Of a DNA stretch of 39,289 nt, positions 2,507-34,093 are shown piece by piece. Both the position numbers and the translations under genes were made by a program. Source of the stretch: an uncultured Candidatus Saccharibacteria bacterium (GTDB taxonomy: Bacteria > Patescibacteriota > Minisyncoccia > Sungbacterales > SURF-37). The notes below the pieces were generated by a model. That model ran no database searches and was not told the DNA's origin. It saw only the letters and a program-made list of their open reading frames with translations. The stretch is taken from contig CAYIQX010000001.1 in assembly GCA_964365675.1 (NCBI GenBank), positions 1 to 39,289 of the forward strand, given 5' to 3'. Each line of letters starts with the position of its first letter. The stretch's first letter is position 1.

Positions 2507-2556
2507 TCGATCTTATCTATATCAATGGTATATACCATTGATATAGATAGGATCGA
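2507..2556. repeat. AT-rich palindrome family P1, copy 1
   Basis: Perfect 34-nt palindrome ATCTATATCAATGGTAT/ATACCATTGATATAGAT (2515-2548). It extends to 50 nt with one mismatched pair. Related copies lie at 10420-10450 and 33459-33488. Confidence 0.9.
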
Positions 2557-2603
2557 AGTCATTTGTTTTCTCCATTCTAAATCCTGAATGCTATACTGCC
2601 TCC

Positions 2604-3764
2604 ATGGTCGGACTATCCCATCTCTTCCGGCGCTCGCGGCCTGGTCATTTTTTGGCCATTGACTTGGGTTCGGATACCACGATCCGCTCCTTTCTTTTTA
2701 AAGAGGACGGAGGGCGGCGTATTGCGCTGAAAAAATGGTCCTTTGACTTGCCAAGCCGCAAGGATAGTTTCGACAATATCCCGTTCATCGGCCGCTATCT
2801 CCATGCGCTCCTGACGGCATGCATCCGGCAAGCCGGTTCTTGCCCAAAGGAAGCGCTGATCGGTCTTGGCGGGCACCTGGCGCAAAATGAGGTTGAAACC
2901 GTGAATGTTATCCGCGAGCGCGCAGGCGAACCGATCCGGGAAGAGGAGCTTGCTACTGCACTCTCGGCATTCCGTCAGCAACACTCCGAACGAATAGCAG
3001 GAGGCAGGCGTTATCTTCTTGCGAGCGTCGTACCCCTTGGCATACAGCTCGACCAGCGGCCTCTCGGTACCATTGCTCCGGCTCGCCGCGGCCGAGTGAT
3101 CAGGATCGTATTTTTTACCACCTACGTTCTCGACGCATATTGGGAGCTACTGCTGGAGCTTCGTTCCCACTGGAAGGGACTTTACCTTACGACAATATCA
3201 GATCAGGCGGCTATCGCGGGAGCGCTTATCGGAGCCGTCCATAGTCACGAGGCGCTCCTGGTGAAAGTCGGGGCCAAAACAACGGAGGTATCCATAGTGG
3301 ATCATGAAAGTGTCCTCTTTACCGGCCAATTCCCGTACGGCGGGGATGCCGTGACACTTGCTATCGCCCGGCAGACCGGGCTCGATCAGGGAAAGAGCGA
3401 AGAGATAAAAAGGCGATTTGAACAGGGGGGTCTGCCGCAAAAAACCGCCGAGAAGATTCGAGAAGCAGTCCAAAGTGCTAGCCAGGATTGGGTAGGCGCT
3501 CTTAGAGACCTTCTTCGAGCTTCCGGGGTCGTCATACCCGAGCGCATCTTTCTCTTTGGCGGAGGGGCACGGCTCGAGACCATCCGTGCCGCACTGACCT
3601 CGAAAATTTGGTATCATACCCTCCCATCGAGGGGCACCATAGATGTTATGATGCTCGGCGGCGAGGCCGTTACCGGTTCGCCTTTTTGGAATAAAAATCC
3701 TTTTATCTCAGGGCCGGAAGAGGTGGCACTCGGCGCGCTTGTGTACCGGCTGTCGAATAGCTAA
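2604..3764 (+). CDS. Actin-fold ATPase, FtsA/PilM-like
   Basis: Phosphate-1-like AIDLGSDTT; LLVKVGAKTTEVSIVD...PYGGDAVTLAIA; IFLFGGGARL. The order of motifs is typical of FtsA/PilM/MreB-superfamily proteins. Confidence 0.6.
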   Translation: MVGLSHLFRRSRPGHFLAIDLGSDTTIRSFLFKEDGGRRIALKKWSFDLPSRKDSFDNIPFIGRYLHALLTACIRQAGSCPKEALIGLGGHLAQNEVETVNVIRERAGEPIREEELATALSAFRQQHSERIAGGRRYLLASVVPLGIQLDQRPLGTIAPARRGRVIRIVFFTTYVLDAYWELLLELRSHWKGLYLTTISDQAAIAGALIGAVHSHEALLVKVGAKTTEVSIVDHESVLFTGQFPYGGDAVTLAIARQTGLDQGKSEEIKRRFEQGGLPQKTAEKIREAVQSASQDWVGALRDLLRASGVVIPERIFLFGGGARLETIRAALTSKIWYHTLPSRGTIDVMMLGGEAVTGSPFWNKNPFISGPEEVALGALVYRLSNS

Positions 3765-3798: not shown

Positions 3799-5286
3799 AT
3801 GGGGTACTTGGACCGATTAAAAAAAGAATCCGAATCTGACGCTGCTCCCGTGAGCCCGCTTCCGAGAATCTCCAGCGAGGCAAGCCGGATCGTCCGTCCC
3901 CAAAAGCGGATAGTTCAGGATATCGCGCCGCCGGAGGAGGGTTCTCTTCGGCTTCAACCCCGCCCAACTTCTCGTTCGGTCGCACCCCGCGGCCGCTTTG
4001 GCCGCCCGGAGGAGGCGAAGGATTTACCATCGTCCCCGCCGTTGCCAAACGAGACTAAGCCGTCGCGGTCAGAATTGGAGATCGCGGTGCATGTTTGGGA
4101 GCCGGACCCCCTTCGGAAAATCCGCCGGAAGCGGCGGCTTACCACCGCCGTGGCCGCATTTGTCCTGCTGCTCGGTGCGGTGCTCCCTATCGTCGTATTC
4201 CCCCGTTTTTCAGTGACGATCATTCCAAAAGTCGAGACGGTAAATGTGCCAGCAATGGAGTTCGTTGCCGATACGGACAGTACAACCCCCCAGGCTTCCT
4301 CGCGCCGGCTCCCGGCTATTGAGGTCTCGGCGAATAAGACCGTGAGCGCGTCTTTTGAGTCCAGTGGGAAAAAATTTTTGCAGGAACGAGCCCGGGGCAC
4401 GGTACTGCTTTATAACGCATTCAGTTCCGCGCCCCAGGCGTTGGTTGCCAACACCCGCCTGCAAGATCCTTCCGGGAAGATTTTTCGCCTGCGTTCGAGT
4501 GTGACCGTTCCCGGGGCGCAGGTCAGCGAGGGGAAAATAGTTCCCACCTTCATATCAGGCGGCGTGGTCGCCGAGGAACCGGGAGAGGCCTTCAATATCG
4601 AGCCGACTGAATTTCGTATCCCAGGATTTCGCGGCACGCCGAAGTACCAGGCATTTTCTGCGAAATCCGAGGAAGCATTCATTGGTGGCTTTGTCGGCGA
4701 GGCCCGAATTGTGGAACCGGAAGATCTGCGGCGCGCTTCGGAGGAGCTAACCCGGACCGCTATTGAGACGCTGGGACAGGAACTCGCCGAAAAAATTCCT
4801 GGGGATCCGGATTTTTTTTCACCGCCCGGAACGCGGGAACTCGTCATTACCCGTATCGATCAGCCCAGGGCCGGGGAACGGCATGATCAATTCACGGTCA
4901 GTGTGCATGCGCGTGGCCGGGCTGTGGTCATACGAAAGTCACATCTTAGCGGAATATTATTAGAGTTGCTGCTCCCGCCGGACAAAGATACGTCGATGGC
5001 CCGGGTCTCGTCCGACCAGCCAGAATTGATCCTCGGCGATATCCGGCTGGGACCGGAAGGAGGAGAAATGCGCCTTACGGCTTCAGGCAAGCTTGCATTT
5101 TGGCGGGAGGCGGATCGTGCCGCTGTTGCCTCGGTGCTTCACGCTTCTACGCCGAAAAAAGCCGAGGCATACCTCCGGGGGCGCGAGGAAATAGGAGCGT
5201 TCCGCATCGAGCGCTTCCCGCCTTGGTTGTGGTTTATCCCCGCGCGCGAGGACGGCCTTAAAATCGATGTGGAGCCGCCGATTTAG
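3799..5286 (+). CDS. Hypothetical single-pass membrane protein with a large C-terminal domain
   Basis: 495-aa ORF with a Pro/Arg/Ser-rich N-terminus and one TM segment (LTTAVAAFVLLLGAVLPIVVF). No family recognised. It sits in the same orientation directly after the ftsA-like gene. Confidence 0.6.
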   Translation: MGYLDRLKKESESDAAPVSPLPRISSEASRIVRPQKRIVQDIAPPEEGSLRLQPRPTSRSVAPRGRFGRPEEAKDLPSSPPLPNETKPSRSELEIAVHVWEPDPLRKIRRKRRLTTAVAAFVLLLGAVLPIVVFPRFSVTIIPKVETVNVPAMEFVADTDSTTPQASSRRLPAIEVSANKTVSASFESSGKKFLQERARGTVLLYNAFSSAPQALVANTRLQDPSGKIFRLRSSVTVPGAQVSEGKIVPTFISGGVVAEEPGEAFNIEPTEFRIPGFRGTPKYQAFSAKSEEAFIGGFVGEARIVEPEDLRRASEELTRTAIETLGQELAEKIPGDPDFFSPPGTRELVITRIDQPRAGERHDQFTVSVHARGRAVVIRKSHLSGILLELLLPPDKDTSMARVSSDQPELILGDIRLGPEGGEMRLTASGKLAFWREADRAAVASVLHASTPKKAEAYLRGREEIGAFRIERFPPWLWFIPAREDGLKIDVEPPI

Positions 5287-7599: not shown

Positions 7600-8574
7600 A
7601 TGATCCCACTCCCGCAGCAACCCAAGATCGTCCGCGAAGAAGGTAACCAGGCTGTTTTTGAGCTGGAAACGCTTTGGCCCGGATACGGCCAGACCATCGG
7701 CAATGCCATCCGCCGCGTTCTCTTGTCTTCCCTCGAAGGCGCCGCTATCACCACGATCAAGATCGAAGGCATACAGCATGAATTTTCAACCCTCCCGGGC
7801 GTGCTCGAAGACATGGTAGAGCTAACGCTGAACCTGAAGCGCGTCCGTTTCCGCATGCACGGCTCCGGCCCGTATACTGCCACCCTTTCGGTGAAAGGTG
7901 ATAAACGCGTAACCGCAGAGGACATGAGAACGCCTTCCCAACTTGAGGTAGTGAACCCGGGGCAATACATCGCAACCCTTACCGATAAGAAGGCCGCTTT
8001 TATCATGGACCTCACGGTCGAGAAGGGCATTGGGTATCAACCAATTGAATTCCGCCAAAAGGAAAAAGTCGAAATAGGCACGATCGCGCTTGACGCCATT
8101 TTTTCGCCGCTCCGTTTGGTGAACTACGAGGTCGAGAATATGCGGGTTGGTGACCGCACTGATTTCAACTTGGTGCGCTTTCATATTGAGACCGACGGCA
8201 GTATTTCCCCGCGTGAGGCTTTTTCGCAGGCGGCAAAGATCCTTCAGGAACAGTTCACCGTGCTTGCCGGGGTATTCGCACGAAAAATCGAGACCGTTAT
8301 CCAGGAGACGTTGGCACCTGCTCGAGCGGTCGAGCTAATATCTGAAGAGGTGGGAGGGGAGACCCTCGAAGAGCAGGTTCAGAAAAAGCGCGTGGAAGAT
8401 CTGGAACTTTCAACCCGCACCATGAATGCGCTTCTGAATGGCGGCATCAAGAACGTTGGTGCATTGGCAAAAAAATCAGAAAAGAAACTTCACGCCGTCG
8501 AGGGTTTGGGAGATAAAGGGATCGTAGAAATAAAGAAGGCCCTAGGAAATCTGGGGCTGACGCTTAAACAGTGA
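7600..8574 (+). CDS. rpoA: DNA-directed RNA polymerase alpha subunit
   Basis: GNAIRRVLLSSLEGAAIT in the N-terminal domain. C-terminal alpha-CTD (LELSTRTMNALLNGGIKNVGAL). Operon position after rpsD. Confidence 0.95.
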   Translation: MIPLPQQPKIVREEGNQAVFELETLWPGYGQTIGNAIRRVLLSSLEGAAITTIKIEGIQHEFSTLPGVLEDMVELTLNLKRVRFRMHGSGPYTATLSVKGDKRVTAEDMRTPSQLEVVNPGQYIATLTDKKAAFIMDLTVEKGIGYQPIEFRQKEKVEIGTIALDAIFSPLRLVNYEVENMRVGDRTDFNLVRFHIETDGSISPREAFSQAAKILQEQFTVLAGVFARKIETVIQETLAPARAVELISEEVGGETLEEQVQKKRVEDLELSTRTMNALLNGGIKNVGALAKKSEKKLHAVEGLGDKGIVEIKKALGNLGLTLKQ

Positions 8575-8606
8575 ACAAGAACCAGTGAACAGTAACCAAG
8601 CCGAAT

Positions 8607-8957
8607 ATGAAACACCTTAAGCGGGGGCGAAAATTCGGGCGGACAGCGGATCAGCGAAAGGCCCTCCTGCGCATCCTCGCCTCGCAACTGGTGATGAAAG
8701 AGCGCATTCAGACCGGCGAGGCCAAAGCCAAGGAGCTCGCGCCGCTGGTCGAGAAAATGGTTACCCGCGCCAAAGACCAGTCGCTGGCCGCACGGAGAGC
8801 GTTGGAACGCGATCTACCCGAATCGGCCGCCGCAAAACTTATGAAGACCATCGCACCCCGCATGGCCTCCCGCCCCGGCGGATACACCCGCATCATTAAG
8901 CTCGGCCCGCGGAAGTCGGATTCGGCCCGCAGGGCGATCATTGAATTCGTGGAGTGA
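8607..8957 (+). CDS. rplQ: 50S ribosomal protein L17
   Basis: MKHLKRGRKFGRTADQRKALLRILASQL...GGYTRIIKLGPRKSD. Follows rpoA. Confidence 0.93.
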   Translation: MKHLKRGRKFGRTADQRKALLRILASQLVMKERIQTGEAKAKELAPLVEKMVTRAKDQSLAARRALERDLPESAAAKLMKTIAPRMASRPGGYTRIIKLGPRKSDSARRAIIEFVE

Positions 8958-9595: not shown

Positions 9596-10150
9596 ATGCC
9601 ATCAAAGAAACCAGCTAAAAAGCCCGCCGCGCCTAAAATCCAGCACGTAAAACCGGAGGCAAGAAAGCCGGTCCGATTGAAGACGTCCGCAAAATCTGTG
9701 GTCGCGGCGGAGGCTAAACCGCTCAAGGAGGCCGCGGGTATTGAGCGCGAACCGGTATCCGAGCGTTACTGGGAAGCCGTTGGGCGGCGAAAAACAGCGG
9801 TGGCGCGCGTGCGGCTCTTTACGAAAGGGAATAAGGGAGTATGGGTGAACGAAAAGCCACTTTCGAACTACTTCCCGTATCCTTTTCTTCAGCAAAGGGC
9901 CACCGAGGCGCTCGAAACCATGAATTCCCAAGACCACTTTCGCACTTCGGTGAAAGTATCGGGCGGCGGCATCAATGCCCAGGCCGATGCCATTCGCCAT
10001 GGCACGGCTCGCGCCCTCATTCTCTTCAACCCTGACTTCCGAAAGCGCTTAAAAAAAGCCGGGTTCCTTACCCGTGACCCCCGCATGAAGGAACGAAAAA
10101 AATTCGGATTGAAGGGCGCGCGGAGGGCCCCGCAGTGGGCGAAACGGTAG
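9596..10150 (+). CDS. rpsI: 30S ribosomal protein S9 with a ~55-aa Lys/Pro/Ala-rich N-terminal extension
   Basis: The core begins YWEAVGRRKTAVARVRLF and ends GFLTRDPRMKERKKFGLKGARRAPQWAKR. Follows rplM. Confidence 0.92.
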   Translation: MPSKKPAKKPAAPKIQHVKPEARKPVRLKTSAKSVVAAEAKPLKEAAGIEREPVSERYWEAVGRRKTAVARVRLFTKGNKGVWVNEKPLSNYFPYPFLQQRATEALETMNSQDHFRTSVKVSGGGINAQADAIRHGTARALILFNPDFRKRLKKAGFLTRDPRMKERKKFGLKGARRAPQWAKR

Positions 10151-10158
10151 GACCATCT

Positions 10159-10397
10159 ATGAAGGACGTCCAAAAGCGGGTAGATGAGCGGGTCTAGCAG
10201 TTCAAAATCCCGTACTGGCCGCACGAGATCCTTGCCCGGCTCATTGGGGAAGTGGGAGAGCTTGGCCGCGAGGTAAACCATTTTTTTTCGGCCCCAAAAA
10301 GAAAAAGTCGTCCGAAACGGAAGGGATAACGAGCGCTACGAGAAGAAATCTGCGAACCAAAACACCGCCCCATGAGGCGGTGTTTTGGTGGGAGTAA
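10159..10397 (+). pseudogene. MazG-like nucleotide pyrophosphohydrolase remnant (in-frame TAG, frameshift at a T8 run, truncated)
   Basis: MKDVQKRVDERV-TAG(10195-10197)-QFKIPYWPHEILARLIGEVGELGREVNHFF resembles the N-terminus of small MazG/YpjD-type proteins. After T8 (10281-10288) the expected FGPKKKKSSETEG continues in another frame. The C-terminal half is missing. Confidence 0.5.
10357..10388. terminator. Bidirectional terminator-like hairpin
   Basis: 13-bp perfect stem CCAAAACACCGCC/GGCGGTGTTTTGG with a 6-nt loop. A-run and T-run sequences are built into the stem ends. Confidence 0.6.
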
Positions 10398-10419
10398 TTC
10401 TCGGGAAGGCCGCAGGGTC

Positions 10420-10450
10420 CTATATCAATAGTATATACCATCGATATAGA
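10420..10450. repeat. AT-rich palindrome family P1, copy 2 (imperfect)
   Basis: CTATATCAATAGTATATACCATCGATATAGA. Two positions break the symmetry relative to copies 1 and 3. Confidence 0.85.
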
Positions 10451-10534
10451 TGCGGACTGGCAGGAAAAGTGAATAATTGGCGTTGCCAATCTCGAGAGGG
10501 CTCGTTATGCTTGAGGAAAGTGCTTGAGGAAAGA

Positions 10535-32479: not shown

Positions 32480-33415
32480 TTACCCCAAAATAGTTCCGAC
32501 GATCTCCCGATGGCCGCGGAGAAAATCCTCCCCGGGCATGGATTTCCCTCCTTCCGGCTTTAACTGCTGAATGGCCATGGTTCCGCGTCCCGCCGCAACA
32601 AGAAATTCGTCATTCTCGTCGAACACCTCGCCGGGTCGTCCCTCGCTTTTTACCCCTTCCCCTTTCACCCGCGCCCTCTCTATTGCCAATCGTATGGCAT
32701 TGCCGTTCCTCTGCCAAAACATATATGCACCGGGCCAGGGCTGGAATGCACGAACCTGCCGCTCGATATCGCGAGCCGGCATTGCCCAGTCAATGTGCCC
32801 GTCCTCCTTTTTCAGGATGCGGCTATAGGTGGCCGCCGCATGATCTTGCGGTCGGGGAGTTATTTTCCCTGTGGCCCAAGACCTAAGAGTTTCGAGGAAT
32901 AATTCCACGCCAAGGTCAGTAAGCGCATCCGAAAGTTCAAGTGCAGTCCAGGCCCGGTCGCTAAGCGGGAACTCCCGGAAAGCAACAATGGGGCCATGGT
33001 CCATTTCGCTATCCATCTGAATGATGGTAACGCCCGACAGGGCATCCCCAGCGAGAATGGCCGATTGAATCGGGGTAGTACCCCGCCACCGGGGCAGGAG
33101 GGACGGATGAATATTTAAGGAGCCGAACTCTGGGACCGCAAGGACATCCGGAGGCAAAATTTTTCCGTAGGCCACCACCAGTGAAAGTTTGATATCATGT
33201 GCCTTCAATTCTTCCGCGAATCCACCCAACGTTACCGGCTGCAGTACCGGGATACCAAATTCAAGCGCGGCCAACTTCACCGCACCCGTCCCGTGGCCAT
33301 CAGCCGCAGTAACCGCAAGTACGGGCTTTAGGCCACCTATGATGAGCCGCCGCAAAAATCGCGCGTTCTGGAGGGAACCGACAAATTCCGATGTTCCAAA
33401 AAAAGCGATCCGCAT
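32480..33415 (-). CDS. fmt: Methionyl-tRNA formyltransferase
   Basis: MRIAFFGTSEF and SLNIHPSLLPRWRGTTPIQSAIL. Sits downstream of def. Confidence 0.92.
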   Translation of the reverse strand: MRIAFFGTSEFVGSLQNARFLRRLIIGGLKPVLAVTAADGHGTGAVKLAALEFGIPVLQPVTLGGFAEELKAHDIKLSLVVAYGKILPPDVLAVPEFGSLNIHPSLLPRWRGTTPIQSAILAGDALSGVTIIQMDSEMDHGPIVAFREFPLSDRAWTALELSDALTDLGVELFLETLRSWATGKITPRPQDHAAATYSRILKKEDGHIDWAMPARDIERQVRAFQPWPGAYMFWQRNGNAIRLAIERARVKGEGVKSEGRPGEVFDENDEFLVAAGRGTMAIQQLKPEGGKSMPGEDFLRGHREIVGTILG

Positions 33416-33458
33416 GGCTTTACAAATTACGAATACTTAAAATTTCCGAATATCACAT

Positions 33459-33488
33459 CTATATCAATAGTATATACTATTGATATAG
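33459..33488. repeat. AT-rich palindrome family P1, copy 3 (perfect 30-mer)
   Basis: CTATATCAATAGTAT/ATACTATTGATATAG. It is flanked about 25-45 nt away by an outer inverted repeat, TTACGAAT (33427-33434) / ATTCGTAA (33536-33543). Confidence 0.9.
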
Positions 33489-33550
33489 GAGGCGGGACGG
33501 TGCGCATATCCGATCCGTATATTTGTGTCCGCTCGTAATTCGTAAAATGG

Positions 33551-34093
33551 TCAAACTGCCTTGGCATCAATCGGGAAAAGATGTTTAGTCCGGTCGGCTA
33601 TGAGCACGCCCTCAAGGTGATCCGTTTCATGCTGAATGACGCGGGCAAAAAACTTTGTAAAGCCCCGCGCGTGCTTTTTGGCATGTTCGTCGTACCACTC
33701 CAGATATACTTTATCGGCGCGCGATATCTCCCCGAACTTCCCGGGGATGGAAAGGCATCCCTCGGCCATTGTTCTTTTTTCCCGTGACTTCTTTTTCAAG
33801 ACCGGATTGATAAACACATTGTACTCCCATTTCTTTGGTACTTTTGCCGTGTTTGAAGCGTTCGCGGTCTCATTGTCAACCGCCCTTGCCTCCTCCGAAA
33901 CCAAAAAAATTTTGAGACCAACCCCGATTTGTGGCGCGGCAAGACCAACGCCATCTGCGGCGGCGCGAAGGGTATCCCTCATATCGGCAATAACCTGCCG
34001 GATGCGCGCTCCGGAAATATCCGAAAGCGGCACGCTTGCCGTTGGCGCGCGGAGCAAATTATGGGGGAGTTTTACGACGGGTTTTACGGACAT
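33551..34093 (-). CDS. def: Peptide deformylase
   Basis: From ATG 34093: GVGLAAPQIG, EGCLSIPG and QHETDHLEG (all three PDF motifs). The ORF-track start at 34342 adds an implausible extension. Confidence 0.92.
   Translation of the reverse strand: MSVKPVVKLPHNLLRAPTASVPLSDISGARIRQVIADMRDTLRAAADGVGLAAPQIGVGLKIFLVSEEARAVDNETANASNTAKVPKKWEYNVFINPVLKKKSREKRTMAEGCLSIPGKFGEISRADKVYLEWYDEHAKKHARGFTKFFARVIQHETDHLEGVLIADRTKHLFPIDAKAV

Follow-up and report, generated by a model that had tools for sequence, protein, structure and literature searches.

An AT-rich palindrome family that brackets a TrpR-like gene in a Patescibacteria genome: candidate operators dispersed like a mobile repeat

The stretch of DNA analyzed here (39,289 nucleotides, hereafter the window) contains three AT-rich palindromes, none of which is assigned to a strand. 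Copy A (2507-2556) lies in the spacer between alaS (567-2474; stop at 2474) and a PilM/FtsA-like gene (2604-3764; start at 2604); copy B (10418-10451) lies 3' of rpsI (9596-10150) and 5' of a plus-strand ORF that starts at either 10508 or 10535, i.e. 57-84 nt away; and copy C (33457-33490) separates def (stop at 33551) from fmt (start at 33415), both genes being on the minus strand. The preliminary description had reported palindromes at these three places, each between co-directional genes, and rereading of the sequences bore out both statements. Copy C is, as described, a perfect 30-mer (33459-33488), and the symmetry of copy B is indeed broken twice, at positions 5 and 8 counted from the centre, each time by a substitution in one arm. 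For copy A the reported 50-nt dyad with one mismatch (a single T.G position) was recovered, but its perfect part was found to be 36 nt long (2514-2549) and not 34 nt; the conserved 34-mer occupies 2515-2548. Searching the window with the 24-nt core and allowing up to three mismatches returned exactly three sites (2520-2543, 10423-10446 and 33462-33485), and the same search returned 0 matches in 100 dinucleotide-preserving shuffles. The PilM/FtsA-like gene downstream of copy A has an extended -10, TGcTATACT (window 2586-2606), which ends 6 nt before the ATG, is conserved in the genomes G001 and G003 and, going by its sequence, looks like a leaderless-type promoter. A consensus scan around copy A for a promoter inside the palindrome was empty.

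We extended the pattern search to the whole assembly that contains the window (G000; 647,634 bp in 84 contigs, 96.6% complete, 57% GC) and found 12 copies of the palindrome family in these 648 kb. The conserved unit is the 34-mer ATCTATATCAATrGTATATACyATTGATATAGAT, with dyad symmetry reaching 42-50 bp, and non-orthologous copies share no sequence outside the palindrome that would make it part of a longer repeat. Ten of the 12 copies are intergenic, against a genome of which ∼89% lies in long ORFs (P ∼1e-8), and every intergenic copy has co-directional genes on both sides, the junctions being alaS/pilM-like, rpsI/unassigned ORF, def/fmt, alr/unknown, aspS-type synthetase/scpA, sodA/small membrane protein, rplC/rplD, rpoD/pspC, folD/TrpR-like gene and TrpR-like gene/next gene. 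From palindrome to downstream start codon there are 13 to 135 nt, depending on the copy. The other two copies are genic and occupy in-frame positions within loops of two PMT_2 glycosyltransferase genes (C5:4985 and C6:11176), where both are translated through as ..SISMVYTIDID.. and the ORF stays open. Beyond G001, a congener of G000, a scan of public genomes gave just single, chance-like matches in unrelated taxa, and metagenomes contributed ten contigs of relatives from groundwater or aquifers, one of them with the bracketed gene described below. The preliminary description had allowed that the palindromes might have no further copies and no conservation in relatives; 12 copies were found and relatives carry the family, so the palindrome finding stands.

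A search for a co-occurring HTH regulator, which the preliminary description had suggested, identified one TrpR/YerC-family gene, located outside the window at C31:5571-5999 and encoding 142 aa. It is flanked by two copies of the palindrome, i.e. a degenerate copy at C31:5519, 23 nt upstream of the start codon, and a second copy at C31:6044, 33-39 nt past the stop codon, and G000 has no other member of the family. The protein matches Pfam Trp_repressor (PF01371) with 37 bits against a cut-off of 27, and a family profile search retrieved the YerC/HisR-type structures 3kor, 3frw and 3g1c at E ∼1e-14. The AlphaFold model of residues 11-100 (pLDDT ∼90) matches the same three structures with target TM-scores of 0.82-0.88, and also matches E. 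coli TrpR, including the DNA/operator complexes 1tro and 1trr. The last 40 residues are modeled as two low-confidence helices. No catalytic domain, catalytic motif or conserved acidic/histidine cluster was recognizable in the protein family.

Our survey of homologues covered 61 genomes of the order and yielded 28 orthologues and paralogues that are 27-90% identical. In about two dozen of these 28, a perfect or near-perfect palindrome precedes the start by 30-77 nt, and most of those so preceded repeat their own palindrome shortly after the stop. The sequence of the bracketing palindrome varies by lineage and by paralogue, although many share a CAATAG-N6-CTATTG or ATAC-N6-GTAT architecture. The main orthologue adjoins folD in G000, G001, G005, G006 and G013, in two families of the order, and likewise in a metagenome contig; this adjacency indicates that the TrpR-like gene is resident and vertically inherited. 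A longer TrpR-like subtype (170-184 aa) lies near scpA in the three congeners (G001:C18:7426-7653, G002:C3 ∼8233-8740 and G003:C1:10285-10590); its 175-aa representatives in G002 and G003 are bracketed likewise, in their case by AATACT-N4-AGTATT-type palindromes, and no gene of this subtype was found in the G000 assembly. The right arm of the upstream palindrome provides, in G005 and G013, TTGTAA, which is followed after 17 nt by TATAAT or TAATAT and then, after 6-8 nt, by the ATG; in G000 the corresponding arrangement is TTGATA, 16 nt, TAGTCT, 6 nt, ATG. At the gene's own promoter the right arm of the dyad site thus contains a -35-like hexamer at the correct spacing in G005, G013 and G000. 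Other copies have an outward -35-like TTGATA too, but a -10 at a suitable distance accompanies it only at the TrpR-like gene.

Palindrome families and TrpR-like genes also go together across genomes, in that a given family is confined to genomes with the matching paralogue, apart from one apparent exception (G008). G000 has one TrpR-like gene and one palindrome family associated with it; G001 has three bracketed paralogues and three palindrome families (13, 6 and 3 copies), the two extra families being absent from G000; and the congeneric G002 and G003 have neither a close orthologue nor the G000-type palindrome. The number of dispersed copies per genome ranges from zero in G005, which has the two bracket copies only, to ∼15 in G017, which has 17 copies in total, all 17 of which seem to fall outside genes when placed on a stop-to-stop ORF map. 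Near-identical site cores go with proteins whose recognition helices are similar (G001c and G029; G001b, G013 and G028) even though the proteins are just 54-65% identical, which argues for direct recognition. The apparent exception is G008, where six similar palindromes were found and no TrpR-like gene was found in the 100-contig assembly. Contigs from four groundwater runs in Logan begin or end exactly inside palindromes, at positions 4986 and 10519 of L007 (G000:C5), indicating that such repeats fragment short-read assemblies. A bracketed gene of ∼500 bp would for this reason easily be lost from a bin such as that of G008, and may be missing from some other draft assemblies as well.

Because they lie between co-directional genes, the intergenic copies are probably transcribed. 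Their arrangement would suit an RNA hairpin that works on polycistronic transcripts, as an RNase III site, a stabilizer or an unusual terminator, independently of the TrpR-like protein. Perfect stems of 15-23 bp fold very stably (copy A has -33 kcal/mol, z -10.9), and the positions that depart from Watson-Crick pairing are G.U on the sense strand in four of five cases, which is a small number. However, in copy B the sense-strand RNA contains two A.C mismatches, and its fold is no better than that of shuffled sequences (z -0.69), so the palindromes are probably not obligatory sense-strand RNA hairpins. The genome also uses canonical GC-rich terminators with A/T tracts, including the terminator-like hairpin of rpsI itself (10366-10392), which copy B follows at ∼28 nt, and a hairpin acting in RNA would not explain why the palindrome of each lineage brackets, and changes with, the gene of a DNA-binding protein. 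A processing or termination signal, which the preliminary description had listed among its options, is for these reasons not supported, and we regard the RNA reading as highly improbable. An intrinsic terminator in the strict sense was rejected in addition, as the stem is AT-rich, no T tract follows it and canonical GC-rich terminators exist elsewhere in the genome.

What the palindromes of the different lineages share is linkage to a DNA-binding protein, and the reading that we favor on balance is that the palindromes are double-stranded DNA docking sites, i.e. operators, of the single TrpR/YerC-family protein of G000, and that they have spread in a REP-like manner. An operator for a dimeric or tetrameric DNA-binding protein had been proposed from the palindromes alone and is the best supported of the original options, the bracketed gene being the cognate candidate. 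E. coli TrpR binds its operator as tandem dimers, and the TrpR-like protein would bind its 30-34 bp dyad either as a dimer or as tandem dimers. Overlap of the upstream copy with the -35 of the TrpR-like gene would give autorepression: since the right arm supplies the -35 hexamer, a bound dimer would occlude the promoter, as in TrpR/HisR autoregulation. Proteins of the TrpR/HisR family bind palindromic operators and often autoregulate (PMC9413887). The half-sites of the palindromes resemble the TrpR/HisR consensus (PMC9413887) in symmetry and motif flavor (TGTA..TACA, ATAG/CTAT and ATACT being the related forms), although the conserved unit is 30-34 bp as opposed to ∼20 bp. The likeness to the TrpR/HisR (YerC) repressors (PF01371; trpO, 1tro/1trr; HisR, PMC9413887) extends to the fold, the family, the small HTH protein, the dyad site and the position of a site at the gene's own promoter. 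There are also clear differences, as the sites described here are 30-42 bp long, are near-identical between copies, include a second copy after the stop and have spread by insertion, also in frame into genes, with positions that turn over between sister species, while the protein has a 40-aa C-terminal extension and no amino-acid biosynthesis regulon.

Judged from the genomes compared, the bracket around its own gene is the only putative target of the protein that is conserved across lineages. The other ten copies would be secondary, a unit of 34-44 nt having been copied and inserted into co-directional, mostly housekeeping junctions and into PMT_2 loops. No coherent regulon emerged, the neighbors in G000 (alaS, rpsI, def/fmt, alr, aspS/scpA, sodA, rplC/rplD, folD, rpoD/pspC and PMT_2) being unrelated. 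Testing for a conserved regulon at alaS/pilM, aspS/scpA and rplC/rplD in up to 30 genomes gave a single coincidence: the aspS/scpA copy recurs only in G017 (1 of ∼30 genomes), at scpA, which is compatible with chance. The rplC/rplD copy was seen within the genus only, in 2 of 30 genomes (G000 and G001). As the dispersed positions are not conserved beyond the genus and their neighbors have no common theme, we read these copies as a secondary spread of the operator; with protein bound, such a copy would most plausibly be an operator or road-block for the gene that follows, and an effect of the dispersed copies on downstream genes is possible. The variable spacing to the start codon and the location of two copies inside genes also weigh against the operator reading. 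A near-identical 34-nt unit furthermore carries far more information than a site in a 650-kb genome needs, and this excess conservation points to common descent and not to selection for binding alone.

The same distribution could be produced by chromosome-architecture sites comparable to ParB/parS, MatP/matS or Noc, in which a protein marks a dozen specific places for nucleoid organization or segregation and not for control of transcription. In those systems a small site-specific protein typically has about ten palindromic sites in the genome, and neighboring genes without a common function would be expected of them. There is in addition a loose, repeated link to scpA: G000 and G017 have copies ahead of scpA, G013 has a paralogue directly upstream of this gene, and the longer subtype lies beside it in G001, G002 and G003. 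However, the sites avoid coding DNA (10 of 12 intergenic in G000, and an apparent 17 of 17 in G017), whereas matS and parS tolerate genes; the site positions do not persist beyond the genus; and G005 manages with its two bracket copies. We therefore consider an architectural role very unlikely, though somewhat less so than the RNA hairpin, and return to operators that spread.

Comparison of G000 with G001 (∼77% nucleotide identity in genes) revealed how fast the sites move, and the presence/absence comparison with relatives that the preliminary description had proposed as a check on mobility thus disclosed positional turnover between sister species. Five sites are common to the two genomes (alaS/pilM, after alr, rplC/rplD and both bracket sites). 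For a further six G000 sites the orthologous place in G001 has no copy, and at least three sites occur in G001 only. Among the window copies, copy A is present in the orthologous G001 spacer and absent from the same alaS spacer in G003, G004 and G005. Copy B has no counterpart in the orthologous spacer of G001, which is 63 nt long versus 137 nt in G000, and copy C is missing from def/fmt in G001, which has a copy one junction further on instead, after fmt. At aspS/scpA, G001 and contig C3 of G000 have an overlapping TAATG stop/start, whereas contig C6 has a 62-nt insert that holds a 44-nt palindrome. Of the two genic copies, that at C6:11176 is held by an in-frame insert of 69 nt which G001, G002 and G005 all lack, and that at C5:4985 lies within an 84-nt in-frame insert absent from G002. 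Outgroups have no palindrome at aspS/scpA, and as the same holds for the PMT_2 gene on C6, the polarity of these changes is gain by insertion. From these alignments, gain and loss of dispersed copies are rapid on the scale of sister species, and the site behaves like a mobile repeat, with short insertions between overlapping genes, in the S10 ribosomal operon and in membrane-protein loops. No target-site duplication was visible in five comparisons of filled and empty sites.

Several further observations were made at these loci. The G000 bin holds two aspS-scpA versions (C6:53-793 and C3:5739-6446) that are 90% identical at the protein level, with the palindrome in the C6 version only; the pair reflects either strain or species heterogeneity or contamination (the stated contamination is 2.3%). 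The two PMT_2 orthologues of G003 have several other in-frame, low-complexity inserts at loop positions. The rplC-rplD interval is ∼520 nt in G001 (C1:8106-8617, L014) as compared with 85 nt in G000, the extra sequence, possibly a small ORF, following the palindrome.

A profile of symmetry along the arms was obtained from 34 distinct copies, taken from G000, G001 and relatives in metagenomes. Counted outward from the centre, the arms are complementary at positions 1-15 in 82-100% of copies (28-34 of 34) and at positions 16-21 in 50-80%, with covarying pairs (TA/CG and CG/GC/TA); within the latter range, positions 18-21 are paired in 50-68% of the 34 copies against a background of ∼25%. Complementarity then drops to 18% at positions 23-24 and is 20-32% farther out. 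The differences between orthologous G000 and G001 sites are, as we read them, symmetric double changes and affect the core as well as the flank extension. Binding of a dimer does not by itself account for symmetry at flank positions that are not themselves conserved. Template switching within a palindrome is an established mutational mechanism (quasipalindrome correction), and we propose that the arms beyond the core are perhaps held symmetric by template switching together with inheritance from the source copy. A requirement for a hairpin or cruciform may be another source of the flank symmetry.

Symmetry of this kind, extending into variable flanks with covariation between the arms, is also what a REPIN/RAYT-like replicator would show, i.e. 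selfish hairpin-forming DNA whose bracketed gene is an inherited partner that promotes or polices copying, with any regulation being incidental. REP-RAYT systems consist of a single-copy gene with its own repeats on either side, each paralogue having a repeat family to itself, and most of the repeats are extragenic. The palindromes share each of these properties, being short, dispersed and mainly intergenic, flanking a vertically inherited single-copy gene and showing compensatory evolution of their arms. The insertion polymorphism, the in-frame copies and the range in copy number, from no dispersed copies in G005 to ∼15 in G017, fit as well, and some G000-only copies share a flank extension with older copies (e.g. 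of CCT/AGG type), as copy-and-paste predicts. However, the partner is a plain HTH protein with two low-confidence C-terminal helices and no recognizable catalytic domain, in place of a Y1 (HUH) transposase; the Y1 profile PF01797 had no match in G000 or G001, in a search that was positive in 6 of 14 control genomes. The repeats are AT-rich where REP sequences are GC-rich, number about ten and not hundreds (3-17 copies in the families found), and have no GTAG/CGTC tag, no REPIN doublets and no target-site duplication. We consider it unlikely that a replicator of this type, with regulation as a by-product, is the correct description. G003 was observed to contain two Y1_Tnp genes.

The suggestion in the preliminary description of a REP/MITE-like element is borne out as to behavior, given the insertion and deletion polymorphism and the in-frame genic copies, and is not supported as to membership, as no RAYT was found in G000 or G001 and a GTAG tag and target-site duplications are lacking. 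REP-RAYT membership was rejected because the partner has a TrpR fold, the ends are ATCTAT...ATAGAT with no GTAG/CGTC and all copies are solitary, and a MITE was rejected because the whole unit is one palindrome with no terminal repeats around an internal segment and no target-site duplication. Rickettsia palindromic elements (RPE), which are ∼100-150 bp long and lie in frame in the protein-coding genes of a reduced genome, offer another parallel, in that a palindromic repeat of a reduced genome has been inserted with the reading frame kept. The unit described here differs from them in its length of 34-44 nt, in being tied to a TrpR-like gene and in that just 2 of the 12 copies are genic; we know of no cognate binding protein for RPE. 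A more speculative proposal, which we put forward tentatively and rate only slightly above the selfish replicator, combines the two sides: a vertically inherited parallel to REPIN-RAYT built on a non-catalytic TrpR-family HTH protein, in which an operator would have turned into a copy-and-insert element via hairpin, cruciform or templated repair, possibly aided by the protein, so that it would seed portable, protein-controlled operators or road-blocks at operon junctions and also in coding loops, and would rewire expression in genomes with hardly any other regulators.

To our knowledge, gene regulation in CPR/Patescibacteria is almost unknown, and their genomes encode very few regulators. Keyword searches in a collection of papers found no published description of the protein-palindrome system, and the 142-aa protein and 34-bp duplex constitute a concrete candidate protein-site pair for this group. 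If the protein does bind, the operator of a transcription factor would here be spreading in the manner of a REP element, with implications for the origin of regulons and for the persistence of selfish repeats in very small genomes.

Other palindromes were noted in the same genomes. Perfect palindromes of 36-40 nt that share a CGACGATCGTCG-type centre and have ACAAATA/TATTTGT arms make up a second family in G000, present in three copies (C29:1369-1408, C13:7590-7627 and C67:2085-2120) for which no cognate gene was identified, and a third type, TATTCTCAArTTCTTAAGAA..., occurs there twice (C6:10508-10543 and C23:31-60); a palindrome resembling this third type lies 58 nt upstream of scpA in G004 (L134). 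G003 (loci L027, L034 and L046) and G005 have an AT-rich AAAATTCAAAACGCGTTTTGAATTTT-type family with 5-7 copies at up to three mismatches. Finally, in the spacer after alr in G001, a G000-type palindrome and an ATTAAT-centred one lie ∼100 nt apart (G001:C2:29560 and 29662).
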